From Chitinophagales bacterium (GTDB lineage Bacteria > Bacteroidota > Bacteroidia > Chitinophagales > LD1): 64,000 nucleotides of DNA. Positions 3,205 to 45,203 of this stretch are shown piece after piece. The notes below the pieces were generated by a model, which was not told where the DNA came from, did not search any database, and saw only the letters and a program-made list of their open reading frames with translations. Position 1 is the first letter of the stretch; each line of letters starts with the position of its first letter. The stretch covers positions 43,291 through 107,290 of the forward strand of contig JAXLUJ010000009.1 of NCBI GenBank assembly GCA_046329575.1. The letters are read 5' to 3'. Position numbers and translations under genes: made by a program.

Positions 3205-3822
3205 GTGTGGTGGCAATATGTTTTAGTGTTTATAGGTTCGATGTTGGTGGACATTGTACCATTTCCTTTTCTGCCGGCATTCACGGTGATGATTGCATTG
3301 CAGTTGATTTTTAAACTGAATATTTGGTTAGTGATCATTGCCGGCGTAGCCGGTTCCATTTTGGGCCGCTACATTCTTACGTTGTACATTCCCAAATTGT
3401 CGGCAAAAATCTTCAACACTTCCAAGAATGAAGACGTACAGTATTTGGGTAAGAAAATGAAACAAAATCGGTGGAAGGGCCACGGATTGGTGCTTTTGTA
3501 TTCGCTTTTGCCATTGCCTACCACACCCTTGTTTTTGGCAGCAGGAATGGCGCGGCTGAGTCCGCTTTTTGTGATACCTGGTTTTTTTGTAGGGAAATTC
3601 ATTAGCGATACGGCTGCCGTTACGTTGGGCGATTATGCGGCAAAAAGCACGAATGATCTTGTACACGGCATAGTATCGTGGAAAACATGGGTAAGCCTTG
3701 CTGTTGGCCTGGTATTGCTTTGTGCGCTATTGTTTATCGACTGGCGCACTTTATTGCAACAAAAAAAGTTGCGGTTGCGGTTTAAGATTTGGAAGAAAGG
3801 AGAGGGGAGAAGAGAAAGATGA
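3205..3822 (+). CDS. Multi-pass membrane protein, YqaA/DedA (VTT-domain)-like
   Basis: 205-aa ORF with a GTG start (alternative ATG at 3241) and several hydrophobic helices. LVDIVPFPFLPAF...IIAGVAGSILGRYIL resembles COG1238/YqaA-type proteins. The last codons and the stop lie inside the heptamer tract. Confidence 0.5.
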   Translation: MWWQYVLVFIGSMLVDIVPFPFLPAFTVMIALQLIFKLNIWLVIIAGVAGSILGRYILTLYIPKLSAKIFNTSKNEDVQYLGKKMKQNRWKGHGLVLLYSLLPLPTTPLFLAAGMARLSPLFVIPGFFVGKFISDTAAVTLGDYAAKSTNDLVHGIVSWKTWVSLAVGLVLLCALLFIDWRTLLQQKKLRLRFKIWKKGEGRRER

Positions 3823-3862
3823 AAGATGAGAGATGAGAGATGAGAGATGAAAGATGAGAACT
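3814..3862. repeat. Heptamer microsatellite, 7 units of GARAGAT (last unit degenerate)
   Basis: Read directly: gaaagat gaaagat gagagat gagagat gagagat gaaagat gagaact. It overlaps the stop codon of the 3205..3822 CDS. Confidence 0.9.
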
Positions 3863-3863
3863 G

Positions 3864-4019
3864 AGCGTTCCGTGAGGGGGCGGAAAGGCGAGCCGAAGGC
3901 GAGGCCCGAAACGAAGTGAAGGGCGGAAGCGATAGCGTACCCTTGCAGCACCCGACCCCGCCTGTGGCTGTTGCCTGGCGAATTGGCTGAAGATGCTTGG
4001 CGGGGGCACGGCAAAAAAA
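3864..4019 (+). repeat. GC-rich intergenic repeat element, copy A (~156 bp, REP-like)
   Basis: The reverse complement matches 13055..13176 plus 15920..15956 over its whole length. By eye identity is roughly 85-90 percent, with a variable central ~40 nt. It ends in an A7 run and lies between convergent genes. The ORFs called here in several frames (3633..4022, 3751..4014, 3782..4009) are artefacts of the repeat. Confidence 0.85.
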
Positions 4020-8472: not shown

Positions 8473-10263
8473 ATGCAAAATATTAGGAACTTCTGCATCA
8501 TAGCGCACATTGACCATGGCAAAAGCACGCTGGCCGATCGTTTGATTGAAACCACCAAAACGATTTCGGAGCGCCAGATGATGGATACCGTTCTCGATAA
8601 TATGGATCTGGAACGCGAACGCGGTATCACCATAAAGAGCCATGCTATCCAAATGGACTATCAGCGCGATGGTAAAAAATACGCTTTTAACCTGATTGAT
8701 ACCCCCGGCCACGTTGACTTCAGCTACGAAGTATCGCGCTCGCTGGCGGCCTGTGAAGGCGCGCTGCTGCTGGTAGATGCCTCGCAAGGCATTCAGGCCC
8801 AAACTATTTCCAATTTATATCTGGCGGTTGATCAGGGCCTCACCATTATTCCGGTAATCAACAAGATTGATATGCCGGGCGCCAACCCCGAAGTGGTAGA
8901 AGATCAGATGATGAACCTGATTGGCTGCAAAAGGGAAGAAATCATACGCGCCAGCGGCCGTACAGGCGAGGGCGTAAAGGAAATTCTGGATGCGGTGATT
9001 GATCGCATTCCTGCGCCAAAAGGCAATGAGGAAGCGCCCCTGCGTGCGCTCATCTTCGATTCGATGTTCAACTCCTTTCGCGGGGTAATTGCCTATTACC
9101 GTATTCTTGACGGCAAAATCAGCAAAGGTGAAAAAGTAAAGTTTGTGAATACCGGCGCGGTTTACAATGCCGATGAAGTAGGCGTTCTGCGGTTGGATCT
9201 GGAACCGCGAAACGAAGTAAAAACTGGTGATGTAGGCTACATTATCACCGGCATCAAGAACGCCAAAGAAATTAAAGTGGGCGATACGATTACCGCCAAC
9301 GCCAATCCTTGTGAAGAAGCTATCCACGGTTTTGAAGATGTGAAACCTATGGTTTTCGCAGGTATTTATCCCATTGATAATGATGACTATGAAGATCTGC
9401 GCGATTCATTGGAAAAATTGCAGTTGAACGATGCCTCTTTGGTGTATGAGCCGGAAACGTCTATAGCGTTGGGATTTGGTTTCCGCTGTGGATTTTTAGG
9501 ACTGTTGCATCTGGAGATTGTTCAGGAACGCCTGGAACGCGAATTCGACATGACCATCATCACCACGGTGCCGCAGGTGAGTTACGAAGCCTATCTGACC
9601 GATGGATCGCAATTAACTATCAACAATCCGGCCGATATGCCGGACATCCAGCGCATTGAACGTTTGGAAGAACCTTACATCAAGGCGCAGGTGATTACTA
9701 AGCCGGAATATATAGGCGCGATTATGACGTTGTGCATGGATAAACGCGGCATTCTGATTAATCAAAACTATTTGACCGAAGATCGCGTGGAACTGCATTT
9801 TGAAATGCCGCTTGCTGAAATTGTTTTCGACTTTTACGATAAACTGAAATCTATTTCACGTGGCTACGCTTCTTTCGATTATCACCGCATTGATTACCGT
9901 CCGGGCGATTTGGTGAAACTGGATATTTTATTGAATGCGGAAAAAGTAGATGCTTTCAGCGCCATGATTCACCGTTCAAAGGCGGAAGACTTTGGCCGAA
10001 GAATGTGCGAAAAACTGAAGGAAATCATTCCACGGCAAATGTTCATGATCCCGATTCAGGCGGCTATTGGCGCCAAAATTATTGCCCGCGAAAACATCAG
10101 CGCCATGCGTAAAGATGTGACCGCAAAATGTTATGGCGGCGATATTTCAAGAAAGCGCAAACTGCTCGAAAAACAGAAAAAAGGGAAGAAGAAAATGCGT
10201 CAGTTCGGTAAAGTTGAAGTGCCTCAGGAAGCCTTCATCGCCGTGCTTAAACTGAATGATTGA
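8473..10263 (+). CDS. lepA: Translation elongation factor 4 (LepA)
   Basis: 596-aa ORF with the GTPase motifs [14 protein letters not shown] and NKID, and the LepA C-terminal domain ending in [23 protein letters not shown]. Confidence 0.97.
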
Positions 10264-10285
10264 TCTCTTTTCGTTTAAAAAGAAC

Positions 10286-10309
10286 CATTCGTTTACATTA
10301 AAACGAATG
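10286..10309 (+). terminator. Stem-loop after lepA (9-bp stem cattcgttt/aaacgaatg, 6-nt loop)
   Basis: Read directly. The right arm can alternatively pair with attcgttt at about 10315..10322. There is no strong U-tract, so terminator function is tentative. Confidence 0.35.
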
Positions 10310-10353
10310 CGGAATTCGTTTATTAACAGAACCTAGTTCTCAAAAAATAAAAA

Positions 10354-11229
10354 ATGCTGCTCGACGGAAAGAAACTGGCTGATGAATTGAAACTCGAAAT
10401 TGCTGCGGAAGTAAAACAGTTAACATCAACCGGAAAACGTAGGCCGCATCTTGCGGCCATTCTGGTGGGAAACGATGGCGGTAGTTTGTCGTATATCGGC
10501 CATAAAGTAAAGTCATGCGAACAGGTAGGTTTTCAATCTACCTTACTGCACTTTGAAGATACTTCAATCACCGAGGCGTTTCTGTTGCAGGAAGTGGAAA
10601 AGCTCAATCGCAGCGAAGAGGTGGATGGTTTTATTGTGCAACTGCCGCTTCCTTCACACATCAATGCCGATAAAATCATCATGGCCATTGATCCGAAGAA
10701 AGATGTGGATGGGTTTCATCCTGTAAATGTGGGAAAAACTACACTCGGCCTTCCGGCTTATGTATCGGCCACACCCCTTGGTATTACCAAAATTTTAGAG
10801 CGCTATAAAATTGCTACTTCAGGCAAACATTGTGTAGTAATTGGCCGAAGTAATATTGTAGGAAGACCGGTGAGCATTTTGCTCAGTAACAGTGCGCCAA
10901 CCGGAAATGCTACCGTAACGGTTTGTCATTCCAGAACGCAAAATCTGGCTGAAATCACTAAGACGGCTGATATCATCATTGCGGCATTGGGAAAGCCGGA
11001 GTTTCTTACCGGCGATATGGTGAAAGAAGGCGTAGTGATTATTGATGTGGGCACTACTCGTGTGGAAGATGCCACTTCAAAAACAGGATGGCGACTGAAA
11101 GGCGATGTGAAATTTGATGAAGTTTCTAAAAAAGCATCGGCCATTACGCCGGTTCCAGGAGGTGTTGGACCGATGACAGTGGTTTCTCTTCTTCTCAATA
11201 CTTTAAAAGCTTACAAGAATGAAGTATAG
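10354..11229 (+). CDS. folD: Bifunctional methylenetetrahydrofolate dehydrogenase/methenyl-THF cyclohydrolase
   Basis: 291-aa ORF with the motifs GFIVQLPLP, DVDGFHP, GRSNIVGRP and PVPGGVGPMT. Confidence 0.95.
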   Translation: MLLDGKKLADELKLEIAAEVKQLTSTGKRRPHLAAILVGNDGGSLSYIGHKVKSCEQVGFQSTLLHFEDTSITEAFLLQEVEKLNRSEEVDGFIVQLPLPSHINADKIIMAIDPKKDVDGFHPVNVGKTTLGLPAYVSATPLGITKILERYKIATSGKHCVVIGRSNIVGRPVSILLSNSAPTGNATVTVCHSRTQNLAEITKTADIIIAALGKPEFLTGDMVKEGVVIIDVGTTRVEDATSKTGWRLKGDVKFDEVSKKASAITPVPGGVGPMTVVSLLLNTLKAYKNEV

Positions 11230-12097
11230 TTTTCCTTTTGTATGCCTCCTTTCCCTTTTAGCTGCCTGTAATCAAAATCCTTCAAAAACGGCACCAGCCG
11301 GCGATTGGAGCGATTCGGCCGTTTCTACCATAAAATATAAAGCCTTCCCTGATGGCAAACGGTTGCTGGAAAAAGACAACACCTTTTACGATGTGGTTTC
11401 CTTTCTCGATAAAAGCGATGCCGCCTCTTTTTTACTCAAAATCACAAAGCACGAAAAGCACTTTATTGACTCTGTGAATGGCGAAAACCATTTTACCGTA
11501 GCGGCACAATCGTTAAATAACAGTTCCCTTAAATGGAAGGCCGATTTTGATGCGGCCGACATCGACTATTCTGCAAAAGTTATAGTGGCCCATACCGAAC
11601 CTTCCGGCGATCAGGAAGATACGTACACCTTGTACTCGTTGCTGAATGGCAACAAACTGATGAGTTATACTTATGGCGATTTGAGAGCCCTTATCCCAAA
11701 CACTTCGCACAAACGGTTCTTTGGGTATCTATCGCAAAAATCGGCTCAGGACCATCCGCAAAATTTTGCCGATGTTACCTATTGCGGCAGCGATAAAGTA
11801 ATTCAAACCATTCACATTCGTTCAAAGAACAAAGACATTCCGGTATATACGCCGGAGCTGTTGCTGAAGGCGGCTGAAGAAAGCGGCAACACCATTGCTG
11901 CCGAAGGGAAGAATGTAATTTTGGCGCATGCTTCGCGCCAGTTTTCAGCCGATCAAATCACCGGATTCGCCCTTCAGATAAATTATTTTCTGCCAAACGT
12001 AACCGAGCCGATCACCATACTGCTGCCCGTTCGCAACGATCATGTTGACCTCAGCGCCGCGCAGTACAATAAATCCATTTTTGAACTTAGCGAATAA
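11219..12097 (+). CDS. Hypothetical lipoprotein
   Basis: 292-aa ORF with the signal plus lipobox-like LLSLLAAC. Its start overlaps the folD stop by 11 nt. No family recognised. Confidence 0.6.
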   Translation: MKYSFPFVCLLSLLAACNQNPSKTAPAGDWSDSAVSTIKYKAFPDGKRLLEKDNTFYDVVSFLDKSDAASFLLKITKHEKHFIDSVNGENHFTVAAQSLNNSSLKWKADFDAADIDYSAKVIVAHTEPSGDQEDTYTLYSLLNGNKLMSYTYGDLRALIPNTSHKRFFGYLSQKSAQDHPQNFADVTYCGSDKVIQTIHIRSKNKDIPVYTPELLLKAAEESGNTIAAEGKNVILAHASRQFSADQITGFALQINYFLPNVTEPITILLPVRNDHVDLSAAQYNKSIFELSE

Positions 12098-12111
12098 TGC
12101 TAAATTGAATC

Positions 12112-13044
12112 GTGGTTTCCATCTCGTTTGTAGTTCCTGTTTATAATGAAGCAGCCAACATTGCACCGCTTTATGAAAGGCTGAGCGCCGTAATGCAGTC
12201 AATCAACGCTTCTTATGAATTGCTGTTGGTCAACGATGGATCTACTGATACATCGTTACAGCAAATCAAAGATCTGGCCTTGCGTTTTCCCGAGGTAAAG
12301 TTTATTGATTTGAGCCGGAATTTCGGACAGCAAATTGCGCTGACTGCCGGGTTTGAACATTGCACCGGTCAGGCCGTGGTAATTTTGGATGCCGATTTGC
12401 AAGATCCGCCTGAAGTGATTCCTGAAATGTACCAAAAGTTGGGTCAGGGTTTTGATGTGGTGTATGCCCGCCGCCTGAACCGCAATGGCGATGCCCTTTT
12501 CAAGCGCACCTTTGCATCTGTTTTCTATCGTATTCTTTCTACCATTACTACCGTGCCGATTCCGGTAGATACGGGCGATTTCAGAATTGTGAGCCGCCGC
12601 GTGATTGAGCATTTGAAGCAAATGCCCGAAAGTCATAAGTATTACCGTGGCCAAATTCCCTGGTTAGGATTTACGCAAACCTTTATAACCTATGATCGGG
12701 AACCGCGCCGCTCCGGCAATTCGGGTTATTCTTCGGTAAAAATGTTGCGGTTGGCTATTGATGGCATCACCTCTTTTTCCAATTTCCCGTTGCGCTTTGC
12801 GTCTATTGCAGGTTTTGTAGTTTCCGGTATGTCGTTCATTTGGATTCTTATTGCGCTTTACGATCGTTTAATTGCGCACAACACGGTGAAAGGCTGGACC
12901 TCGCTCATGATTGCCATTCTGTTTTTGGGCGGCATTCAGTTGATTTGTATCGGCATTATTGGCGAGTATATCAGCCGCATCAGCGATAATGTGCGGCATC
13001 GTCCGTTGTATATCATTCGGGAAACGAATGTGAAACACCCATAA
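12112..13044 (+). CDS. Family 2 glycosyltransferase (polyprenyl-phosphate sugar transferase, GtrB/ArnC-like)
   Basis: 310-aa ORF with a GTG start. Motifs are VVPVYNE, LVNDGSTD and ILDADLQDPPE, followed by two C-terminal TM helices. Confidence 0.85.
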   Translation: MVSISFVVPVYNEAANIAPLYERLSAVMQSINASYELLLVNDGSTDTSLQQIKDLALRFPEVKFIDLSRNFGQQIALTAGFEHCTGQAVVILDADLQDPPEVIPEMYQKLGQGFDVVYARRLNRNGDALFKRTFASVFYRILSTITTVPIPVDTGDFRIVSRRVIEHLKQMPESHKYYRGQIPWLGFTQTFITYDREPRRSGNSGYSSVKMLRLAIDGITSFSNFPLRFASIAGFVVSGMSFIWILIALYDRLIAHNTVKGWTSLMIAILFLGGIQLICIGIIGEYISRISDNVRHRPLYIIRETNVKHP

Positions 13045-13054
13045 GTTTATTTAA

Positions 13055-13176
13055 TTTTTTTGCCGTGCCCCCGCCAGGCAGCAGCAGTCAATTCGCCGGG
13101 CAGCAGCCATAGGCGGGGTCGGGTGCTGCAAGGGTACGCTATCGCTTCCGCCCTTCACTTCGTTACGGGCCTCGCC
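13055..13176 (-). repeat. GC-rich intergenic repeat, copy B, left part (interrupted by an IS)
   Basis: Matches the reverse complement of 3864..4019 up to ...cgggcctcgcc, where the IS inverted repeat begins. Confidence 0.85.
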
Positions 13177-13241
13177 TGTATCGTCCTAAAAAAAGTTTAC
13201 AGGTTAAAAAATAAGTCCTGTTATAGGTTTACAATTCAGGC

Positions 13242-14189
13242 TTAATCCTGATTGGAGTTTACAAATGTAGTTTTTGGCCGGTAATAATTCTTCCATGTCC
13301 TATGAATTGGAAGGTTATTTCGATGAACGTCTTCAGGGGTCAACATGTTGCAACTCATATGGGGTCGAACTTCATTATAAATCAAAACAGAACGTGTTAG
13401 GATTTCCATTAATTGCCCATCTGTTGGCTGGTAATGGTTTAAGAACTCTTCTTTGATAATCCCATTCACACGTTCAGCAATAGCGTTTTCCAATGGATCG
13501 CCGTTCTCAGTCATACTGATTTTGATGTGGTTAGCTTCTAATAGTTTTACGTAATCAGCCGAACAATACTGTATACCGCGGTCAGAATGATGGATTAGGC
13601 CGGACAACGGCCCACCGGCCATAGTAATAGCCATTTCCAAAGCTTTAACGGTATGTATCGCCTCAAGACTATCCGCTACATGATGCCCAACGATTTTCCT
13701 GCTGTAGGCATCGGTTATGAAGCTGATATATCTAAATCCCAAGGCGGTTTTGTAATAGGTAATATCCGATACCCATAACTGATTAGAAGATGTAGGCGTA
13801 AAGCCGCGTATGATATTGGGGTATTTGCGGAACCAGTGGTTAGATCAGTGTGGTAGTCATTTTCCTACGTTTTTTTCTAATTAATAATTTGTGAGCTGCC
13901 AATAGATCAAATAGCGCATCGCGTCCCATTTTGATTTGATGTTCCAATAAAATGGCTGCAAAAGCAACAGCAGTTTACGGCCACCAATGGCAGGTTGAAG
14001 CGCCGAATTTGATGGACTTCGCTGTAATACCAGTTCCTCTTCAAAAGAGTTGGTTTGCTGTCGCCACTGTTGTTGATAATAAGCCTGTCTGGTTATACCA
14101 AGTAAACAACAGCATCGAACCAGACTTGTTTGGGGTCGGCTGTCTTTAGTTTCACGGATTACTTGGTGTTGGAGTTTTTCGGATGGCAA
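13242..14189 (-). pseudogene. Outer IS transposase orfB (rve/DDE integrase), broken by frameshifts
   Basis: The C-terminal fragment 13242..13742 carries the DDE core (HHSDRGIQYCS...ENAIAERVNGIIKEE). Upstream pieces read in other frames: SNHWFRKYPNIIRGFTPTSSNQLWVSDITYYKTALGFRY, QIKMGRDALFDLLAAHKLLIRKKRRKMTTT, and the 13881..14189 fragment. At least two frame breaks are present. Confidence 0.8.
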
Positions 14190-14580
14190 TCTTATATTCC
14201 TTTTCGGCCAGCGTAATCATACGCTCATAGAGCTCCGAACGAAGTTGTTCGTCTGCCAAACGTTTCTTTAAACGAGCGATTTCAGCCTCCAACATACTGA
14301 GAGACGCCTGCGACTGCTTTTGCGGATCTTTTGATTGAGACAAAGGAAAATCGTTTAGTGCCGCAAAATTACGTAATACTTTTGGTGCATATGGGTCCGC
14401 ATAACCTGCTTTTCGTAGCCACTTGCAAATTATGCCATGGCCGCTCAGGCCATATTTGCGCTCAATGTGCTCTTTGGGCTGACCTGTCTGAAGATATTCA
14501 TCTATAACTTGCTGTTTAAATGATGGTGAATAATAATAAGAGCCTGCAGGTCGTTTCGGATCTTGTTCTTGTTTTGTGTC
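14152..14580 (-). pseudogene. Outer IS orfA body, severed from its start codon by the nested IS
   Basis: Joining 15877..15871 to 14580 and downward reads ATG GAC ACA AAA, giving MDTKQEQDPKRPAGSYYYSPSFKQQVIDEYLQTGQPKEHIERKYGLSGHGIICKWLRKAGY...LEAEIARLKKRLADEQLRSELYERM (HTH plus leucine zipper). The nested IS sits inside codon 2-3. Confidence 0.75.
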
Positions 14581-14641
14581 TGAAGCCCCCCCTAAAACTA
14601 AGATAGGTTAAAACCAGACTGAAAGCACTAATTTCAGTTTT

Positions 14642-14914
14642 ATGAGAAAATCAAAGTTCACGGAAGCGCAGATTGTAAAGGCGCTGGATGAGGAACAGAA
14701 AGGCCGGAAGGCCGAAGACATTTGCAGGGAACTTGGCGTTAGCCGGGCAACGTTTTACCAATGGAAATCGAAGTATGGCGGAATGGACGTAAGCCATTTG
14801 CAACAACTCAAGGCATTGCAGGAGGAGAACCGCAAGCTTAAAGCGATGTATGCGGATTTGGCCTTAGATCACCGCATTCTCAAAGAGGTCATCGAAAAAA
14901 GTTGTAGGGTCTGA
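14642..14914 (+). CDS. IS copy 1 orfA (HTH transposase subunit); C-terminus altered by loss of one A in the slippery run
   Basis: 90-aa ORF identical to copy 2 orfA up to EVIEK. It then reads SCRV, where copy 2 reads KL. Confidence 0.7.
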   Translation: MRKSKFTEAQIVKALDEEQKGRKAEDICRELGVSRATFYQWKSKYGGMDVSHLQQLKALQEENRKLKAMYADLALDHRILKEVIEKSCRV

Positions 14915-14981
14915 ACAGAAACGGCAACTGGTACACCAGCTCAAACAAGAGCAGGTATCAGTACGGTTCGCCGCCCGGATC

Positions 14982-15854
14982 ATGAATATATCCATTGCAG
15001 CCGTTTACTATCAATCGAAGAAGGATGACTCAGCAGTTGTTGCTAAACTCAATACTTTAGCTGAATTAAAGCCAACCCGGGGTTTTGACTATTACTTTGG
15101 CCGTATTCGCAATGAAGGCTTCACATGGAACCATAAGCGGGTGAAACGCGTTTATGATGCGCTACAACTCAATCTGCGGCGCAAAACGCAAGCGAAAGTT
15201 ACCAGTGCGTGAAAAAGTTCCATTACTGCGCCCTAGTGCGCCCAATCAAATGTGGAGTATGGATTTTATGTGCGATACGCTGGCTTGTGGCCGCAAGTTC
15301 AGAACGTTGAACATCATAGATGAGTTTAACAGCGAATTGCTGGATATTGAGATTGACTTTTCGCTACCAGCCAAGCGCGTTATCCGTACGCTGGAAAGAG
15401 CTTCTGGTGCCATGGCAAGCCGATGGCCATACGCGTAGACAACGGCCCAGAGTTCATTAGCAATGCGCTGGAATCATTTTGCAATCAACCGCAGAACAAC
15501 ATTAAGCTGTCTTTTATTCAAAAGGGAAAACCCACTCAAAATGCCTATGTAGAACGTTTTAACCGAACCTTCCGGGAGGATGTGCTGGATGCGTACTCGT
15601 TTAGAACCATTTATCAGGCCCGCAGCGAAGCAGCTTGGTTCCTGGAGGATTACAACAGCCATCATCCTCATGAAGCCCTTCAGGGCATGAGTCCGATTGG
15701 CTATCGCCATGCTGTTGAAAGTGGAAAACTCGCCCCGCGCCAATCCCCGCCGAGTTTACCACATTGCAACAGCGGAACTAATAATAACACCAATAATAAA
15801 TTTTTAACTTCAAACATTGTTAACCGCAAAAAGTCTGGAAATACCCTGTATTAA
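14982..15854 (+). pseudogene. IS copy 1 orfB (DDE integrase), split into three frames
   Basis: ORFs 14982..15212, 15154..15438 and 15423..15854 together reproduce the 290-aa copy 2 OrfB, with frame breaks at A3 to A4 (about 15184) and CC to C (about 15402). Confidence 0.85.
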
Positions 15855-15919
15855 AAATGGGGGGGCTTCATGTCCATTTATAGTTTACATTTTGTGTAAA
15901 CCTATTTTAGGACAAGACA

Positions 15920-15956
15920 GCCTTCGGCTCGCCTTTCCGCCCCCTCACGGAATGCT
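15920..15956 (-). repeat. GC-rich intergenic repeat, copy B, right part
   Basis: gccttcggctcgcctttccgccccctcacggaatgct continues the repeat exactly where 13176 left off. The first 3 nt are the duplicated target. Confidence 0.85.
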
Positions 15957-15961
15957 TGGGT

Positions 15962-17530
15962 TTAGCGGATAACCAGTTTACACATAGTTACAATTTGATC
16001 ATCGCCTGAAAGCGTGGCCATATAGTATCCCGGCGGCAGGTTAGGTAGTTCAGCATCATAATAACTGGAGTAATGGGGCACAACAAAAGAGGCAACATTT
16101 TGCCCCATCGCATTGGTAAGCTGAATTTTTACATGATGGTAACGGTCCCATTCCACCCAGTTGTAATCAAAGCGCACAGCCTGGGAAGCCGGATTCGGTA
16201 AAGGAACCATCCAGGGCTGCCTGCCGGCAGCCTTTAGGCCATCCGGCAGCCCGTTGTATAACGTATCACAAGTAGCGCCCATTTTGCGGCCCAGCCTGTA
16301 ATTTGGAAATAATGGAATGGAGGATGGCATGTTCTTATAGGTTCTGTACTTTCGCCTTCTGAAATCGCAGGCGGCGCCGGTCAAATCGGGTTTCTCTATC
16401 GTATTGATGAAAACGCAAGCTACGGTTGGGCTAATATAAATTTTGCCATCCGGTCCGTAACCGCTGAAGTCGAAAGCACTAATCGCACCAATGATAGAGT
16501 CGATAAAGTTGTCTTGGATGGCAACCGTATCTTTTCCGGCATTTACATCTGCATCATAAAGGTGGTATTGAAAGATGTAATAACCAGCTACCATATACAC
16601 TAATGAATCGTTAGATGCAATCTCAGCAGAAGAAAAAAAATCGGATATCCCACCTAAAGTAGAATCGCGTGGCAGGAAGGTATCTATGATGATGGGATTC
16701 GATAAACGCCCGTTGCATCGGTCAAAGTCAAAAACAGCAGAATTATAAAATCCGGTATGACGCAGCATTTTTTTACCGCTCATCGAAAATACAGTTTTCC
16801 CTCCCGAACCGCCGGGTACCACATTGCCTAAACATTGCTTTTCCACAAAATAAAAGGAATCTTTAGTGAGCAGGTATTTGTGATAGCAGTTGCTGTAAGC
16901 CTCCATGATTATGATCCACCAGTCGCGGCCATTGCCATGGCGGCAAACCCCCAAATGACCGCCGGTGTTGATAGTGCTGTCGATGGCCACATTTTTCCGG
17001 GTAACATGATAGCGTCCATTAATTGGGTTTTTCACTATAGTGGTGTAGTTAAGATAAGAGTTCCAGGGCGCCTCCAGCAGCCCCACATTAATATGAAACA
17101 AATAGATGGTGCTGTCGGTTGGTGCGATTTGCACAAAGGCAAAAGCGCCATAAAGTGCTAACCCGGCATCATTTCCCACTGTAAACTGGTGGCAATATTC
17201 CCACAAGCCGCCATAACCAATACTATCGCCATTGGGAATAATGGCGCCTGCCGTATCAAAAATCCAAAGGCCGTTGGTGTATAATTCCAGATTTCCGGCA
17301 GTATCGGAATAGCTGGTATTGGCTGCATCAAACGCTATATTTCTCTTTTTAGGATAGTGTTTGAATGTATCCAGAAAGGTGGCTTCTTCATTACCGGAAT
17401 AGGGGAACTGTGTACTATCCTGATATTGGGGATGATCGCCCCACATCCACGTATTATCATGCTTTTGTGCATTACTATAAACCCACAAGCAGCAGGCCAA
17501 ATAAATTAGTGTCGTTTTTCTTATTTCCAT
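15962..17530 (-). CDS. Secreted T9SS cargo protein, function unknown (522 aa)
   Basis: Signal peptide MEIRKTTLIYLACCLWVYSNAQ. The C-terminal ~80 aa, PNPASQAVRFDYNW...YYMATLSGDDQIVTMCKLVIR, fits a T9SS sorting domain. Its start overlaps the upstream giant gene's stop by 10 nt. Confidence 0.75.
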   Translation of the reverse strand: MEIRKTTLIYLACCLWVYSNAQKHDNTWMWGDHPQYQDSTQFPYSGNEEATFLDTFKHYPKKRNIAFDAANTSYSDTAGNLELYTNGLWIFDTAGAIIPNGDSIGYGGLWEYCHQFTVGNDAGLALYGAFAFVQIAPTDSTIYLFHINVGLLEAPWNSYLNYTTIVKNPINGRYHVTRKNVAIDSTINTGGHLGVCRHGNGRDWWIIIMEAYSNCYHKYLLTKDSFYFVEKQCLGNVVPGGSGGKTVFSMSGKKMLRHTGFYNSAVFDFDRCNGRLSNPIIIDTFLPRDSTLGGISDFFSSAEIASNDSLVYMVAGYYIFQYHLYDADVNAGKDTVAIQDNFIDSIIGAISAFDFSGYGPDGKIYISPTVACVFINTIEKPDLTGAACDFRRRKYRTYKNMPSSIPLFPNYRLGRKMGATCDTLYNGLPDGLKAAGRQPWMVPLPNPASQAVRFDYNWVEWDRYHHVKIQLTNAMGQNVASFVVPHYSSYYDAELPNLPPGYYMATLSGDDQIVTMCKLVIR

Positions 17531-23500: not shown

Positions 23501-25665
23501 GGCGTAACACAGCCAGGACATAAAACGTTAAAAGAAAAGCATTGGTCGTTTAAATTAATGAAACAGTCTGTTTGTCCCCCGCAGTCTTGACTGAAACTTG
23601 TTAGTACGTGTAAATCCTGATGACCGTGTTCTTGACCATCAGGCCCAATTTTTAGCGGACAACATCCTCTTACCCAAAAGTGTAACTTTGAGTTTTTAAA
23701 GAAACTCTTGAATTCTTGACAGTTATTTAATTGCAAGGTAGCGATGTCAAACTTTGCGACTATATGCGGTCCAGTATTTGTTATTTCTATTCCTAAAGTG
23801 GGTAACCAGTTTGTTGTACCATTGCTAATGTATGGAGCCGTGGAGTTTGCAGGAATACCATTGATCGGACAAGAAATTAAAATATTTGAAATGTTATTTG
23901 GGCCATCATCAAAAAGTATCTTAAATACTCCACCTGGACTGCCATTTGGACTCGCGCAAAAAAATTGGCAATCGTAATCATTCGCGTCATTATTAGGGAA
24001 ACTTATATTTTTGATCGTATATTCCTCAGGTTCGCTACAGCTATTTGAACTAGGATTAAGGCCAAAATCGGTAAGATCTGTAACTAATTGTTGGTGCGAT
24101 TGGATCAATTCGAGATCAGGGTCATTTTGATTTGGTATTGAGCTATTAGTACTTATACCCGCCATAGTGGTAGGTAAATGAGCTTTATATAAGTTTGTGA
24201 TTTGTCCGTTATTAGCTGTATAAGTACTGTTTTGAGTATTTAGTGTGTAACCATCAACACAATTTTCCTTGTATTTACCCGTAAATGCCCAATGGTTGAA
24301 AAAAATTGGATTATTAAACCCAACGTTGTCCGGACAACATCTAAAAGTTTTAAATCTGATGCTTAACTGATGTCCTGGAGGTAGCGTTTCCACAAACAGG
24401 TGCCAGTCCTTTATAAATACGTCATTTTGGAAACAGGCTGGTGGTGGAAATGACTGGTCGGCAGCTGTTAAAAAATTTGTAAAGGGGTTATTTTGCTGCA
24501 CGCCGCTGAAAACAGCATTGTTTGGTATCGCGAGCGCATTAACATAGTTAAAACTATGAATGTTATTTGCATCATTAATTATGATTGATGCTCTATCAAT
24601 ATAAGTATAATCCGTGTTAAGAGGAGCATAATTGACTAAATTTAATTCAATATCTGATGCCGTTAAATTAGTACTTTCATTAGAAATCAGAAACTCCCAC
24701 TCTTGTTCGGTATTAGTGCAACTATTATCCCAAAACTCCTGATTAGAACTAAAGGGTATCGGTGAAACCCTATATATGTGCACGAAATCCTGATGATTGG
24801 CGTTGTTAAATATCACATTTAACGCTGCTGTGCTTTTATTTGGGTTACAAGAACAACCCCACAACAAGTTAAAATTAGTATTTAGGCCGCCACTGGGCAG
24901 GCAGCCGGTGGCACCAGAAAGGAATACGTCCTGTTCGATTCGTAAATGGTCACCATGGTGCAAATTAATACCGATAGTTAGTAAATCAACATTTATAGGG
25001 AAAATAACAGAATTTCCGCCCTGACCATTGGCCGTAAAGAAGGGTTGCGTTGCATTATTTAGGTAAAATCGAACACTGGTAATATTCACAATAAGCGGTA
25101 TTGAAGCGGCACCGTCAAAAACAAGGGACCCATAAAAGTCCTCCGAACCATTATTAATGTATTCATGACTAACTGTTTGAGTTTGTCCTACTCCGATTTG
25201 GAAGTTCATGGAGTTAGGTAGTAAATAATGGTCGATGAAAGGAAATTTAAAAGGAGTACTTAAGGTGCCTGAAATGGTTGCAGTTGTGGTAATTATTATG
25301 TTGAATGTGGCAGATGCGGCATTCATCGCCGGTATTGCATTACATAGGCCGTCTATTATGTAGTCTATTTTTTGGTTAGGGTTGGAATTTAACACAGTAT
25401 GGTCAAAACTAAATTTTAATACAGATCCTTGTCTGATTACAGAAAATCCCGCGGGTAAAGTGGCATGATAGTTAAAGGCAACCGTTGGCAAAGTCACATC
25501 TATAACGAAATCAGCGTTTACAAAATTTGATGTTGTTAAAGAAAGCGTGTTTGATTCACAAGCATTCACTGCTGTGGGCATAGTTGAATGAACCTCCTGC
25601 GCCTGAATGTTTTTTGAAAATGTAAGGGTTATTAGAAATACGGTTATAATTAGGTTTGTTTTCAT
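17521..25665 (-). CDS. Giant secreted T9SS cargo protein (2714 aa): N/S/T-rich N-terminal region, Ig-like modules, parallel beta-helix repeats, helical region, T9SS CTD
   Basis: A single uninterrupted ORF with signal peptide MKTNLIITVFLITLTFSKNIQAQ. Ig-like segments include ICPPQSATITATSTSLGSTFMWS...YSVTATAPNGCTASVTQ. Around residues 1700-2250 there are repetitive N-x-x-F/I-x-x-N segments typical of right-handed beta-helix. The C-terminus, YRVYPIPANDHLVLYL...FYQLRLMQADRIIYKRSVILWK, is CTD-like. Confidence 0.85.
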   Translation of the reverse strand: MKTNLIITVFLITLTFSKNIQAQEVHSTMPTAVNACESNTLSLTTSNFVNADFVIDVTLPTVAFNYHATLPAGFSVIRQGSVLKFSFDHTVLNSNPNQKIDYIIDGLCNAIPAMNAASATFNIIITTTATISGTLSTPFKFPFIDHYLLPNSMNFQIGVGQTQTVSHEYINNGSEDFYGSLVFDGAASIPLIVNITSVRFYLNNATQPFFTANGQGGNSVIFPINVDLLTIGINLHHGDHLRIEQDVFLSGATGCLPSGGLNTNFNLLWGCSCNPNKSTAALNVIFNNANHQDFVHIYRVSPIPFSSNQEFWDNSCTNTEQEWEFLISNESTNLTASDIELNLVNYAPLNTDYTYIDRASIIINDANNIHSFNYVNALAIPNNAVFSGVQQNNPFTNFLTAADQSFPPPACFQNDVFIKDWHLFVETLPPGHQLSIRFKTFRCCPDNVGFNNPIFFNHWAFTGKYKENCVDGYTLNTQNSTYTANNGQITNLYKAHLPTTMAGISTNSSIPNQNDPDLELIQSHQQLVTDLTDFGLNPSSNSCSEPEEYTIKNISFPNNDANDYDCQFFCASPNGSPGGVFKILFDDGPNNISNILISCPINGIPANSTAPYISNGTTNWLPTLGIEITNTGPHIVAKFDIATLQLNNCQEFKSFFKNSKLHFWVRGCCPLKIGPDGQEHGHQDLHVLTSFSQDCGGQTDCFINLNDQCFSFNVLCPGCVTPGILPDDHSAFRLERTNFGYQDDDDDGLADVNGQNITPIDQNYLLTHPEVDQLASIVGDHLRANFKGVFFDGTSDHSFGYQYSDWKTYWSALLNRQVVLKDMYYQINISNANLVNLQPTGGNVAYFQPNSVIPASIINLQNPVSVVSGNNVTFLYHVSAEDFLGLNLTEFNIASSVQFLPEFKICQNPANSVELSCTNSMFLTTNSLPNSIVNVISSNSGVSSAGVLNSAYFSPTPPNSVPTPPRPFISASPNLLVYFMCEGAGGAIHKVYSIKERNFEEWKPSNTCMDKLRIKTVRYVDADGAYNAFHNECRPLLMSGGSFSGLLNPAYDPVKLHLGSLANNFIPELVEFYTAGYSYSNSQRNLYAVSHVSCLGANNQIIPANGLGANPVLPANFELNVLNAQYSTCSELQSGILQNYNDPVAITPLCTFNTVQINNIPTLLLGDEYFEQGARFNIHALCQQTTSINSTYSVKGNDSYFEYNSYSDCQAHTSRSDGNIINGNYILSVPSYSNLEITNLSNTQTGSEIISDFAITGFPWINGFQGAENTNIYLQIMLPCNAAGTVNIPIPLNANYGSTDLSVTNVQYLSNNIWQTINPVTIQVNGSCYLSYDLQTIVNTPTKFRINFTLNGCTAADNLVPVPILYSWRCETPFPEINQLTQNTFCNNPSQFNFNLKINSVHIEAINSTITPGASNCNPVQVSACLNSASSGGIGNFHILFSLPDNYTPSNFNISSNNLPGGIVIAFPSNRITVVQNGNNKDYDVNLSSLNLASTSLTGFTAANLWGVDAGFGFNNNDGVFCIKFDLDIPCNTVTFPDLPVRFRYVTYCDPNNQTETISTFRGGPLVNGACHPVVTVSADLQAICPPQSATITATSTSLGSTFMWSNQANTSAISVGSSGAYSVTATAPNGCTASVTQNILPCQLNACGVQEFVAPAGQTYQWSFNNSPLNNSGSSLTPYQTGTYSVTVTQTNGSSASTSFNFFSPASIVLSGTNQLNNVITAQGWPTSGFSPAANTTIAIQGKLVINTNYNFSNVRFLLYPGANIIVNSNARLSVQNTTFESIGSCLWEGFHVNPNGGLTFGDRVQIQDAQYAVYLEHNSDLNCLYGSITFRDNFIGVCASRSSAILPAPMFSYSIRMGSNVRFEGTTNFKKPFPGMINETDMPAASTITDGDNMWAWAGIYLNLFQPTSRTALSAKFSNLANGAIVKHSSAYFRQCQFYAIPAEDRPRAYVQYNLPVNSGGTGARNGNAIYAYNKNQTNPANAITGINISNCFFKSCRKAIKIEQNYEPYIYNNIMNYCLNGIILNNCTESNITIQLNKIDMLGSSFGTLPTQYDGQGLSINFSEPWSTGVVLNFCRSGVNLFAHKIQDNTITVDKWPFFNTIQQSLNIANLGVGISISDDLSRQQPSLQITNNKVSLKNGAEGISMTNVSGIYNTAANVVVERNLVKANVIQATTRNAFRFSNCSNFDVLSNTAYGVLPGASGAANNTNLYPRGFCFAQNSGGHQLVSCNMAYGLKAGFRFEGQNSGTDFKTNDIGHGAIANYVGLHITTSGVMGKQKAKGNNWNGNYSSQNLAGWNQNSAFQGVPSQFRVPIPPGSSAQSPTTNTIIGPSQWFKYDPAVSVVPSCDDNNTTQQPLVQAGELTEFDEMVLMNQYHPDFFEEVNRWEAAKALQEKLGIIADTLDEESVERMFYDSVANTPLGKFAEVEHLQRELYTMNETAMLSLSQSVARQQSFAAALVALDSASNNDTTWLQLIDSSGVNPDTSVTLTDTTNQALYQRLQDYVEAERVIQQNIRAPWRDIFDQRRAHLLSALQALSTNANFQDYTKAVNLLYLKTIDSSNLQYEEGQFNFLVQLAQSCYLEAGNAVFNARAMLSGIAVESYDDFDFCDQAGIALKKEMATDSTKANENRSYRVYPIPANDHLVLYLYGGTYQGETVELINNLGEIVLRQGAPNGGNTLSMLTENLSPGFYQLRLMQADRIIYKRSVILWK

Positions 25666-25683
25666 AGTGAAGCCCCCCCATTT

Positions 25684-26646
25684 TTAATACAGGGTATTTC
25701 CAGACTTTTTGCGGTTAACAATGTTTGAAGTTAAAAATTTATTATTGGTGTTATTATTAGTTCCGCTGTTGCAATGTGGTAAACTCGGCGGGGATTGGCG
25801 CGGGGCGAGTTTTCCACTTTCAACAGCATGGCGATAGCCAATCGGACTCATGCCCTGAAGGGCTTCATGAGGATGATGGCTGTTGTAATCCTCCAGGAAC
25901 CAAGCTGCTTCGCTGCGGGCCTGATAAATGGTTCTAAACGAGTACGCATCCAGCACATCCTCCCGGAAGGTTCGGTTAAAACGTTCTACATAGGCATTTT
26001 GAGTGGGTTTTCCCTTTTGAATAAAAGACAGCTTAATGTTGTTCTGCGGTTGATTGCAAAATGATTCCAGCGCATTGCTAATGAACTCTGGGCCGTTGTC
26101 TACGCGTATGGCCATCGGCTTGCCATGGCACCAGAAGGCTCTTTCCAGCGTACGGATAACGCGCTTGGCTGGTAGCGAAAAGTCAATCTCAATATCCAGC
26201 AATTCGCTGTTAAACTCATCTATGATGTTCAACGTTCTGAACTTGCGGCCACAAGCCAGCGTATCGCACATAAAATCCATACTCCACATTTGATTGGGCG
26301 CACTAGGGCGCAGTAATGGAACTTTTTCACGCACTGGTAACTTTCGCTTGCGTTTGCGCCGCAGATTGAGTTGTAGCGCATCATAAACGCGTTTCACCCG
26401 CTTATGGTTCCATGTGAAGCCTTCATTGCGAATACGGCCAAAGTAATAGTCAAAACCCCGGGTTGGCTTTAATTCAGCTAAAGTATTGAGTTTAGCAACA
26501 ACTGCTGAGTCATCCTTCTTCGATTGATAGTAAACGGCTGCAATGGATATATTCATGATCCGGGCGGCCCGAACCGTACTGATACCCTGCTCTTGTTTGA
26601 GCTGGTGTACCAGTTGCCGTTTCTGTTCAGACCCTACAACTTTTTT
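25684..26646 (-). CDS. IS copy 2 orfB (DDE/rve integrase domain), expressed as OrfAB by -1 frameshift
   Basis: The ORF track gives 25684..26556 (290 aa). The frame stays open upstream to the slippery site (KKVVGSEQKRQLVHQLKQEQGISVRAARIMNIS...). DDE region: WSMDF...IRVDNGPEF...NAYVERFNRTFRED. Confidence 0.8.
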   Translation of the reverse strand, partial: KKVVGSEQKRQLVHQLKQEQGISTVRAARIMNISIAAVYYQSKKDDSAVVAKLNTLAELKPTRGFDYYFGRIRNEGFTWNHKRVKRVYDALQLNLRRKRKRKLPVREKVPLLRPSAPNQMWSMDFMCDTLACGRKFRTLNIIDEFNSELLDIEIDFSLPAKRVIRTLERAFWCHGKPMAIRVDNGPEFISNALESFCNQPQNNIKLSFIQKGKPTQNAYVERFNRTFREDVLDAYSFRTIYQARSEAAWFLEDYNSHHPHEALQGMSPIGYRHAVESGKLAPRQSPPSLPHCNSGTNNNTNNKFLTSNIVNRKKSGNTLY

Positions 26647-26900
26647 TCGATGACCTCTTTGAGAATGCGGTGATCTAAGGCCAAATCCGCATACATCGCT
26701 TTAAGCTTGCGGTTCTCCTCCTGCAATGCCTTGAGTTGTTGCAAATGGCTTACGTCCATTCCGCCATACTTCGATTTCCATTGGTAAAACGTTGCCCGGC
26801 TAACGCCAAGTTCCCTGCAAATGTCTTCGGCCTTCCGGCCTTTCTGTTCCTCATCCAGCGCCTTTACAATCTGCGCTTCCGTGAACTTTGATTTTCTCAT
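26634..26900 (-). CDS. IS copy 2 orfA (HTH plus leucine-zipper transposase subunit)
   Basis: 88-aa ORF, MRKSKFTEAQIVKALDEEQKGRKAEDICRELGVSRATFYQWKSKYGG...LKALQEENRKLKAMYADLAL, typical of IS3-family OrfA. Confidence 0.85.
   Translation of the reverse strand: MRKSKFTEAQIVKALDEEQKGRKAEDICRELGVSRATFYQWKSKYGGMDVSHLQQLKALQEENRKLKAMYADLALDHRILKEVIEKKL
26640..26646 (-). promoter_or_regulatory. Programmed -1 ribosomal frameshift heptamer A AAA AAG of IS copy 2
   Basis: The minus strand reads ATC GAA AAA AAG TTG TAG in the orfA frame. The orfB frame is exactly -1 from it. A_AAA_AAG is the classical IS3-family slippery motif. Confidence 0.6.
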
Positions 26901-27157
26901 AAAACTGAAATTAGTGCTTTCAGTCTGGTTTTAACCTATCTTAGTTTTAGGGGGGGCTTCAATAGGATAATAGTTTTAGACAGAAGTAAAATTTATTACT
27001 GAAACAATTTCTTGTTCTAAAGATAAACCAATAATTACAATATTTTTTTAAAAATTACAACCTACTTATATAACCCTCCTGTAGCCTGTCTTTCTACTTT
27101 CTGGCACAACTTTTTAGCCTACTTTCGCGCTTCTAAAATTCAATAGCTCTGTTCATT

Positions 27158-33703: not shown

Positions 33704-33782
33704 AATTACGAATGAAAAATGACGAATTACGATGAATGGCTTCCTCTCACAATCGTAATTCGTAATTCTGTAATTCGTAATT
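33704..33782. repeat. Long imperfect AT-rich hairpin built from AATTACGAAT / ATTCGTAATT units
   Basis: The left arm aattacgaatgaaaaatgacgaattacgat faces the right arm atcgtaattcgtaattctgtaattcgtaatt across an ~18-nt loop. The ATTCGTAATT unit occurs 3 times in the right arm. Confidence 0.7.
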
Positions 33783-34028
33783 AAACGAAGGTTAGGAATG
33801 AGGTGCTATGTATGTTGTTCAAAATGAGTAAGGCGCTATATTTTGGCTTCCCGCGGTAGGGATCGCAGCGAAAAGCCCGCAAGCCGCGCCACCACTGCGT
33901 TTCATAGATCACAAAACGTAGGCCGCGGCTGAGGACTTGCAGCGTAGAGCCCGGCATCCGCAAAAAATAAAATTCATGCAACACCGCCATTCGTTGTTCT
34001 TATTTGAAAGAAGATTATCTAACCTCAG

Positions 34029-44924: not shown

Positions 44925-45011
44925 CGGAGAGAGAGGGATTCGAACCCTCGGTACAGTTGCCCGTACAACAGTTTTCGAGACTGTCCCATTCGACCGCTCT
45001 GGCATCTCTCC
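44925..45011 (-). tRNA. tRNA-Ser (anticodon CGA)
   Basis: The reverse complement is GGAGAGATGCCAGAGCGGTCGAATGGGACAGTCTCGAAAACTGTTGTACGGGCAACTGTACCGAGGGTTCGAATCCCTCTCTCTCCG. It has a 7-bp acceptor stem, anticodon stem ACAGT/ACTGT with loop CTCGAAA, a long variable arm and a GGTTCGAATCC T-loop. No CCA is encoded. Confidence 0.9.
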
Positions 45012-45080
45012 GTGGGCAAATTTCAATTATTTTTTGATGGAAACCAGCTATTGTTGAGGAAGCATCATTTTGGCATAAAT

Positions 45081-45102
45081 AAAAAAAGCCCGCATCTGCG
45101 GA
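45081..45102 (-). terminator. Rho-independent terminator-like hairpin between the two tRNA genes
   Basis: The minus strand reads GTCCGC-AGAT-GCGGGC followed by T7. The plus strand also ends in a T-rich run. Confidence 0.5.
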
Positions 45103-45115
45103 CTTTTTCTTCTAG

Positions 45116-45203
45116 CGGAGAGAGAGGGATTCGAACCCACGGTAGGCTCATCACCTACGACTGTTTTCAAGACAGTTGCAATCAACCACTCTGCCATCTC
45201 TCC
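45116..45203 (-). tRNA. tRNA-Ser (anticodon TGA)
   Basis: The reverse complement is GGAGAGATGGCAGAGTGGTTGATTGCAACTGTCTTGAAAACAGTCGTAGGTGATGAGCCTACCGTGGGTTCGAATCCCTCTCTCTCCG. The anticodon loop is CTTGAAA and there is a long variable arm. Confidence 0.9.

Follow-up and report, generated by a model that had tools for sequence, protein, structure and literature searches.

Introduction

Why does one insertion sequence (IS) interrupt a second IS that itself interrupts an intergenic repeat, and did the outer element land there by preference or by chance? The question is raised by a locus at 13055-15956 in a 64,000-nucleotide stretch of DNA from a Chitinophagales bacterium (assembly GCA_046329575.1, contig JAXLUJ010000009.1, positions 43,291 to 107,290; hereafter the window, numbered from its first letter). 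An earlier note on this sequence described the three-level nesting, suggested that the GC-rich repeat may be a preferred IS target, and supposed that the outer IS was inactivated by the inner one and then decayed. The locus is read here as a genuine two-step nested transposition in which the site of the outer IS was probably non-random and the frameshifts are mostly consensus error, and we give this reading as a whole a probability of roughly 0.78. The nesting itself is ordinary. IS-in-IS nesting is common in IS-rich genomes, and the locus is like nested insertions in general in that one IS disrupts another and intact target duplications allow stepwise reconstruction, with nothing unusual about it. 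The interesting residue is a candidate clade of Bacteroidota IS3-family elements that would home to repeats.

Structure of the nested locus

The three-level nesting is real, and perfect target duplications round both elements rule out chance. Re-reading of 12700-16300 together with repeat searches returned the coordinates of the nested locus given in the earlier note exactly to the base. Copy B of the 156-bp repeat, read on the plus strand, starts 11 nt past the stop codon of a GT2 glycosyltransferase gene (12112-13044; protein MFN8310123.1) and ends 6 nt before the stop codon of a convergent 522-aa gene (15962-17530), the product of which has a weak match, under the Pfam cutoff, to the C-terminal sorting domain of the type IX secretion system. 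The left part of the copy (13055..13176) closes with GCC (13174-13176) and the right part (15920..15956) opens with GCC (15920-15922), the two copies of the outer-IS target duplication. Removal of the outer IS with one GCC leaves a 156-nt repeat that aligns without gaps, on the opposite strand, to the uninterrupted copy A (3864..4019, minus strand) at 146/156 identity, which bears out the earlier description of copy B as split by an element with 25-bp imperfect inverted repeats and a GCC duplication.

The outer IS is read on the minus strand and totals 1449 bp in two segments. The orfB-side segment (13177..14580) contains the right inverted repeat, the remnants of orfB (~13242-14170), a run of five A (A5, 14175-14179) and orfA from codon 3 (to 14576), and the orfA-side end (15875..15919) contains the stranded ATG (15877-15875) and the left inverted repeat. 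The inverted repeats, TGTATCGTCCTAAAAAAAGTTTACA at 13177-13201 and the reverse complement TGTCTTGTCCTAAAATAGGTTTACA at 15895-15919, match at 21 of 25 positions. Between the two segments lies the inner IS (14581..15870, plus strand, 1290 bp), with perfect 12-bp inverted repeats, TGAAGCCCCCCC (14581-14592 and 15859-15870), flanked by TGTC at 14577..14580, which takes up codon 2 of the outer orfA and one further base, the first of codon 3, and again at 15871..15874. These features had also been listed before and were found again at the same positions. When the inner IS and one TGTC are removed, the sequence reads ATG GAC ACA AAA CAA..., the start of a 141-143-aa outer orfA, and the rebuilt 5' end is that of an uninterrupted outer copy on another contig, L084 (ENA ERZ27248705). 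Because the deletion restores an orfA start of the L084 type, the inner insertion is placed in codons 2-3, with the outer ATG cut off from the body of its gene, as had been proposed.

The arrangement could also be an assembly chimera, in which repeated IS copies were mis-joined and no single molecule carries an IS within an IS within the repeat. The source is a metagenome-assembled genome (MAG) with multi-copy ISs, the locus shows signs of poor consensus quality, and no independent contig was found over any of its four junctions. A mis-join within IS sequence common to several copies, however, would yield neither an unbroken repeat with an exact 3-bp duplication nor an unbroken outer IS with an exact 4-bp one, and an independent contig is identical to the left flank as far as 13140; a chimera is therefore highly improbable. 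In a residual form of this explanation, insertion occurs at a fixed site and two repeat copies, each with an outer IS, are joined through the IS. The IS-in-IS nesting would be real even then.

Both elements belong to the IS3 family

Both elements are members of the IS3 family, as judged from the family model, the -1 frameshift architecture, the TG...CA ends and the short target duplications, and the earlier assignment is upheld. Scored as conceptual OrfAB fusion proteins against NCBIfam NF033516 (cutoff 160 bits), the inner element reaches 263 bits and the outer 273 bits, and each contains the domains rve and rve_3. In Pfam, the inner OrfAB has HTH_Tnp_1, rve and rve_3, and the outer OrfB has rve (1.6e-20) and rve_3 (1.2e-14); the Pfam scan of the outer OrfA gave no HTH_Tnp_1 match at E < 0.001. 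Intact outer copies on L084 and on L085 (Logan SRR26348417) have an orfA of 141 aa, an in-phase A_AAA_AAC and an orfB open in the -1 frame, whereas the slippery run of the window copy is one A short (A5 at 14175-14179 against A6). The outer ends are TGT...ACA, and the 3-bp duplications are GCC in the window and AGG on L084.

An intact second copy of the inner IS (1294 bp, 25668..26961, minus strand), not mentioned in the earlier note, lies between ATAG duplications at 25664-25667 and 26962-26965. Its orfA (26634-26900; 88 aa, MFN8310129.1) ends in GA A_AAA_AAG, an in-phase slippery heptamer, and its orfB is open in the -1 frame to the stop codon (25684-26556 and upstream). In the nested copy, orfA occupies 14642-14914 with an A6 run at 14895-14900, and orfB is distributed over three open reading frames (ORFs; 14982-15212, 15154-15438 and 15423-15854). 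The inner IS has 4-bp duplications at every site with readable flanks, namely TGTC, ATAG/CTAT and CACT, the last belonging to a 96% identical relative on contig L001. By the ISfinder group definitions, the inner element would be IS407-group-like. It resembles that group in its length of ~1.3 kb, TG...CA ends, 4-bp duplications, an 88-aa OrfA with HTH_Tnp_1, and an A_AAA_AAG site followed by an orfB in the -1 frame.

Probable target preference of the outer element

At least six further transposase genes of the outer IS are annotated on five other contigs of the MAG, giving at least seven copies in total, and two copies could be recovered with flanks, on L084 and L085, contigs of the same project. 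Both flanks are GC-rich and align to diverged members of the 156-bp repeat family, with the shared core GGGTACGCTATCGCTTCCG. The two halves of the L084 flank match the family in nhmmer at E = 1e-17 and 1.5e-4; the shorter L085 flank gives no nhmmer hit and belongs to the family by alignment. The orientation of the outer IS relative to the repeat is the same at 3/3 recovered sites (window, L084 and L085), and the bases directly to the left of the IS are similar, ...GGCGAGCCGAAGGC in the window and ...GTGCGAGCGAGG on L084. Copies of the outer IS apart from the repeat would have argued against a target preference; both recovered copies lie in the family and in the same orientation, and this, together with the fixed spacing seen in relatives, supports the preference that was suggested earlier.

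Relatives were taken as the 80 best loci (L004-L083) from species-representative genomes, a set in which the source MAG is absent, at 50-65% protein identity. Their termini, TGTCTTGTCCTRAAATAGGTTT on the left and TGWMTCGTCCTAAAAWAAGTTT on the right, are strongly conserved, and 35 of the 80 have perfect 3-bp duplications at these ends. The terminal ~22 nt are nearly invariant across Flavobacteriia, Sphingobacteriia, Cytophagia, Chitinophagia and Saprospiria, despite 50-65% identity of the transposases. The 80-nt insertion site is 8 points richer in GC than the local background (54 loci with usable flanks; Wilcoxon p = 7e-7), and rebuilt insertion sites fold at -19.9 kcal/mol as compared with -12.8 kcal/mol at control positions (p = 8e-8), the more structured flank being that on the orfB side. 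Most telling is the position of the site in two lineages. Over the 76 kb outside the IS at 12 Flavobacteriaceae loci, which differ in their left flanks and duplications, there are 10 hairpins of the form CGAGC-N2-7-GMTCG, and 9 of them start 12-13 nt past the right end of the IS. In four Pedobacter/Mucilaginibacter genomes, again with different left flanks, the 19-mer GAGCAAGCGGAAGTTGGGC is found at the 4th nt past the right end, directly after the 3-bp duplication.

These distributions might arise without active targeting, if insertion were near-random and the survivors lay in dispensable intergenic DNA, which often holds GC-rich repeats or terminator hairpins. Such an explanation is compatible with the small number of known sites in the source organism (three), with the differing position in the repeat alignment between the window and L084/L085, and with the mostly coding control positions of the relatives. 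On the other hand, it leaves out the constant orientation at 3/3 source-organism sites, the fixed spacing and orientation in 9/12 Flavobacteriaceae insertions with a hairpin that occurs just once more in 76 kb, and the single 19-mer directly after the duplication in four genomes with different left flanks. Intergenic survivorship cannot give fixed spacing; the preferred-target inference is thus supported, extending to the clade, and we regard insertion without targeting as quite unlikely.

The comparison supports a placement of the outer element in a Bacteroidota-wide IS3 clade that would home to lineage-specific GC-rich repeats. In its fullest form, to which we give slightly better than even odds, the proposal is of an undescribed clade with near-invariant termini whose members home in one orientation and at fixed spacing to GC-rich repeats or hairpins that differ between lineages: the 156-bp family in Chitinophagales, CGAGCGGGACGCTCG hairpins in Flavobacteriaceae, and GAGCAAGCGGAAGTTGGGC in Pedobacter and Mucilaginibacter. 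A literature search found no earlier description of repeat-targeting IS3 elements in Bacteroidota, which is no proof of absence.

There are known IS3-family elements of this kind in Proteobacteria. IS1397, ISKpn1 and ISPsy8 insert specifically into the palindromic units of repetitive extragenic palindromic (REP) sequences and bacterial interspersed mosaic elements (BIMEs) (Tobes and Pareja, 2006; PMC1525189, and references therein). For IS1397 and ISKpn1, insertion at enterobacterial REPs has been shown experimentally. By analogy, the outer IS appears to be the Bacteroidota counterpart of these elements, which it resembles in family, in an apparent preference for a short GC-rich extragenic repeat, in constant orientation and in small duplications; its relatives share with them an insertion point fixed relative to a hairpin. 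It differs from them in that its hosts are Bacteroidota, not Proteobacteria, and in that the case for its targeting comes from sequence comparison. The targets also differ, since IS1397, ISKpn1 and ISPsy8 use a REP hairpin of 30-40 nt whereas the target in the window is a non-palindromic composite repeat of 156 bp, and the Flavobacteriaceae relatives insert 12-13 nt beside a hairpin, not in its loop.

The 156-bp repeat family

Both window copies of the repeat fill the spacer between convergent genes and start just after a run of seven T (T7) downstream of a stop codon; copy A is flanked by a VTT/DedA-like ORF (end 3822) and a 141-aa ORF (end 4023). The window contains two occurrences of an 18-mer core of the repeat, where 0.02 would be expected. 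The likeness to REP-type targets that had been suggested does not extend to structure. The minimum free energies of the two copies (-51.0 and -54.7 kcal/mol) are no better than the means of shuffled sequences (-50.7 and -59.8 kcal/mol; z = -0.08 and +1.38), the predicted folds contain small local hairpins only, and a terminator scan of the repeat gave no site, so that the repeat was rejected both as a REP-type palindrome and as a terminator. Rfam had no match for the repeat or for the hairpins that flank the insertions of the relatives.

Of 26 metagenome loci that matched the 18-mer core, ~20 are chance matches of 18-19 nt and four, on unrelated contigs, extend into the family as diverged members: L088 (2227-2363; a marine metagenome contig), L105 (807-943), L101 (6761-6849) and L089 (48-136). 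Blocks conserved in these members are GGGTCG..., GGGTACGCTATCGCTTCCG and ...CTCAC. The count is thus two copies in 64 kb, two diverged copies on contigs of the same project and four metagenome relatives. On L088 and L105 the member follows a terminator-like hairpin and T-run, comparable to the position of the window copies after a T7 run. Heptanucleotide tandem arrays occur beside GC-rich intergenic segments: seven units of AAGATGA adjoin copy A (3810-3865), four units of TCGTAAT at 33753-33782 are near a GC-rich stretch (33844-33904), and on L101 and L089 a TCGTAAT-type array is directly upstream of the family member.

The repeat is treated here as a GC-rich extragenic family that serves as an IS landing pad. 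Like REP/BIME sequences and REP doublets forming hairpins (REPINs), it is GC-rich and extragenic, lies in the 3' spacer of convergent genes, exists in several diverged copies and is a landing site for an IS; it departs from them in its length of 156 bp, in a predicted fold no more stable than that of shuffled sequence and in the lack of an Rfam match.

Frameshifts in the nested copies

The outer orfB had been described as carrying at least two frameshifts. It is indeed broken, but the count is five indels relative to L084 and L085, one of them in the slippery A-run: A6 to A5 in that run, an added G, G2 to G1, T5 to T4 and A to TG, near 14180, 14020, 14002, 13953 and 13847. The four others fall within the first ~330 nt of orfB. 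The remaining differences from L084/L085 are substitutions, mostly in a 3' patch that matches the allele of other MAG copies, and none of the five indels is present in the outer IS of L084 or L085. The nested inner copy is broken as well, a point absent from the earlier note. It differs from the intact second copy at five indel sites (six bases; A7 to A6 in the slippery run, G3 to G2, G3 to G1, A3 to A4 and C2 to C1) and at no substitution over 1290 nt. These five sites lie at 14895-14900, 14953, 14969, 15183 and 15400.

The ten indel sites span 13847-15400, and none of them is closer than 313 nt to a unique junction (13177, 14580/81, 15870/71 and 15919). Since 52.7% of positions are that far from the junctions, the chance that ten independent sites all are is 0.527^10, or ~0.002. 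Seven events out of ten are complex changes or affect runs no longer than three bases. In single-copy DNA the assembly is clean: 9408-13140 (3733 nt) is 100% identical to an independent Logan contig, L003, which ends inside the repeat, ORFs are long and unbroken (up to 2714 aa), and suspicious pairs of neighbouring ORFs are complete separate genes with full-length domains, not split ones. A generally error-prone assembly was rejected on these grounds. Among the other outer copies of the MAG, several also have short indels; P0122 and P0126 arise from a G2 to G1 frameshift, and P0001 has two compensating deletions. That homopolymer errors may remain in repeats after short-read polishing is a documented failure mode (PMC8812927).

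The indel-only, short-run, junction-avoiding pattern and the clean single-copy genes together suggest that long-read consensus errors left in repeats, and not biological decay, account for most frameshifts of the two nested elements, a reading that we consider probable. The supposed decay of the outer IS is not upheld by the ten indel sites, all at least 313 nt from the junctions, by the absence of private substitutions in the inner copy or by the intact state of the single-copy genes. The alternative is that the frameshifts are real and that both nested elements became pseudogenes once the outer IS had been silenced by the inner one. In its favour, intact sister copies exist for both of the broken nested copies, homopolymer slippage is a genuine mutational process, and the A6 allele of the inner slippery run is found on an independent contig. 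In real mutational decay, however, substitutions usually outnumber indels, and the inner copies show five indel sites with no substitution. The inner element is also very recent, being identical to the second copy apart from indels, and has had little time to decay. Changes in short runs or of complex type, as in 7/10 of the events, are rare as spontaneous mutations, and there is no mutational reason for all ten to avoid ~300 nt beside every unique junction. Real decay is rather unlikely on this evidence, and consensus error is preferred.

Order of events and mechanism

A history in two steps would account for the locus. In the first, the outer 1449-bp IS would have entered copy B between the two convergent genes and produced the GCC duplication, its transposase presumably directing one-orientation insertion into, or next to, lineage-specific GC-rich repeats or hairpins. 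In the second, the 1.29-kb inner IS would have entered the outer orfA, parting its start codon from the coding sequence that follows, and produced the TGTC duplication. The outer transposase genes, cut off from their start and promoter, would then be inactive in cis, with the ends of the element intact. The earlier view that the outer IS was silenced by the inner one is consistent with the separation of the orfA start codon from the rest of its gene. Because the inner IS reads on the opposite strand, it cannot drive the outer orfA by read-through; because both outer ends are intact, mobilisation in trans may still occur. From their membership in the IS3 family we infer that both elements transpose by copy-out-paste-in.

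The order of the two insertions is likewise inferred, outer-then-inner being the most parsimonious. The earlier note held that it is fully reconstructible from the target duplications, which goes too far, because these fit equally well with the movement, as one unit, of an outer IS into which the inner one had inserted before. In such a reverse order, the inner IS hit an outer copy elsewhere and the 2.7-kb composite was moved into copy B by a transposase acting in trans, for which both outer inverted repeats are intact and at least six other annotated outer-IS copies in the MAG are at hand. Set against it are the greater parsimony of the simple history, the failure to see a second outer copy with the inner IS at TGTC, and the preference of IS3-family transposases for action in cis, as in IS911. 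We consider the reverse order very unlikely, and keep to outer-then-inner.

Several points weigh against the reading as a whole. Targeting in the source organism is drawn from n = 3 sites, and the aligned position in the repeat differs between the window and L084/L085. In the relatives, the random control positions are mostly coding, which inflates the contrasts in GC and structure. Exact-protein look-ups gave no empty-site allele and no independent contig across any of the four junctions; they matched nothing for P0001, P0123, the 522-aa neighbour, the rebuilt OrfA and two small junction-crossing ORFs. The case for consensus error is indirect, drawn from the assembled sequence. The second inner copy is equally repetitive yet error-free, which needs the extra assumption either that polishing by multi-mapped reads reached just one of the copies or that coverage of the nested variant was low. 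Finally, contig L086 (Logan SRR26348418), which has the left flank of the second copy, has A6 and not A7 at the slippery run (window 26640-26660) and is identical to the second copy at the other four variable sites; the length of this run thus differs between sequencing runs, which may be a real polymorphism or a platform-specific error.

Other copies and other features of the window

Only 2 bp separate the second inner copy from the downstream ATG (25665-25663, minus strand) of the 2714-aa ORF, a start codon that shares bases with the 4-bp duplication of this copy. To judge from this position, the insertion should cut the 2714-aa gene off from its native promoter and ribosome-binding region. 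A third site of the inner IS is found on L002 (Logan SRR26348421), at 1-454, with 764 nt at 100% identity and a flank not found in the window; the inner IS must therefore occupy further loci, or occur in further strains, beyond the two copies seen. Two allelic subtypes can be told apart among the outer copies P0001 and P0121-P0126, on other contigs of the same MAG, by HTIKALEMAISMSYGPL versus HTVKALEMAITMAGGPL and by TDGQLMEIL versus TEEQLKKIL. Both subtypes are combined in the window copy, a mosaic that suggests recombination or gene conversion between copies. Elsewhere in the window, two tandem tRNA genes lie on the minus strand at 44925-45203, 191 nt apart, with near-identical 3' halves.

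Implications

Pseudogenisation of ISs in long-read or hybrid MAGs needs read-level support before it is taken as biology, and at this locus the indel-only, junction-avoiding pattern flags probable consensus error. A clade of repeat-homing IS3 elements, if confirmed, would extend the paradigm of IS1397 and ISKpn1 beyond Proteobacteria, and such an IS could serve as a natural marker for GC-rich repeat families of Bacteroidota that are otherwise unannotated. If the proposal is true, REP-like repeat families are revealed in a phylum where we found none described, and target recognition by the transposase has repeatedly been retuned to the host's own repeats. For the Chitinophagales bacterium itself, targeting of extragenic repeats as safe havens would explain how at least seven copies of the outer IS are carried in a compact genome without gene disruption.

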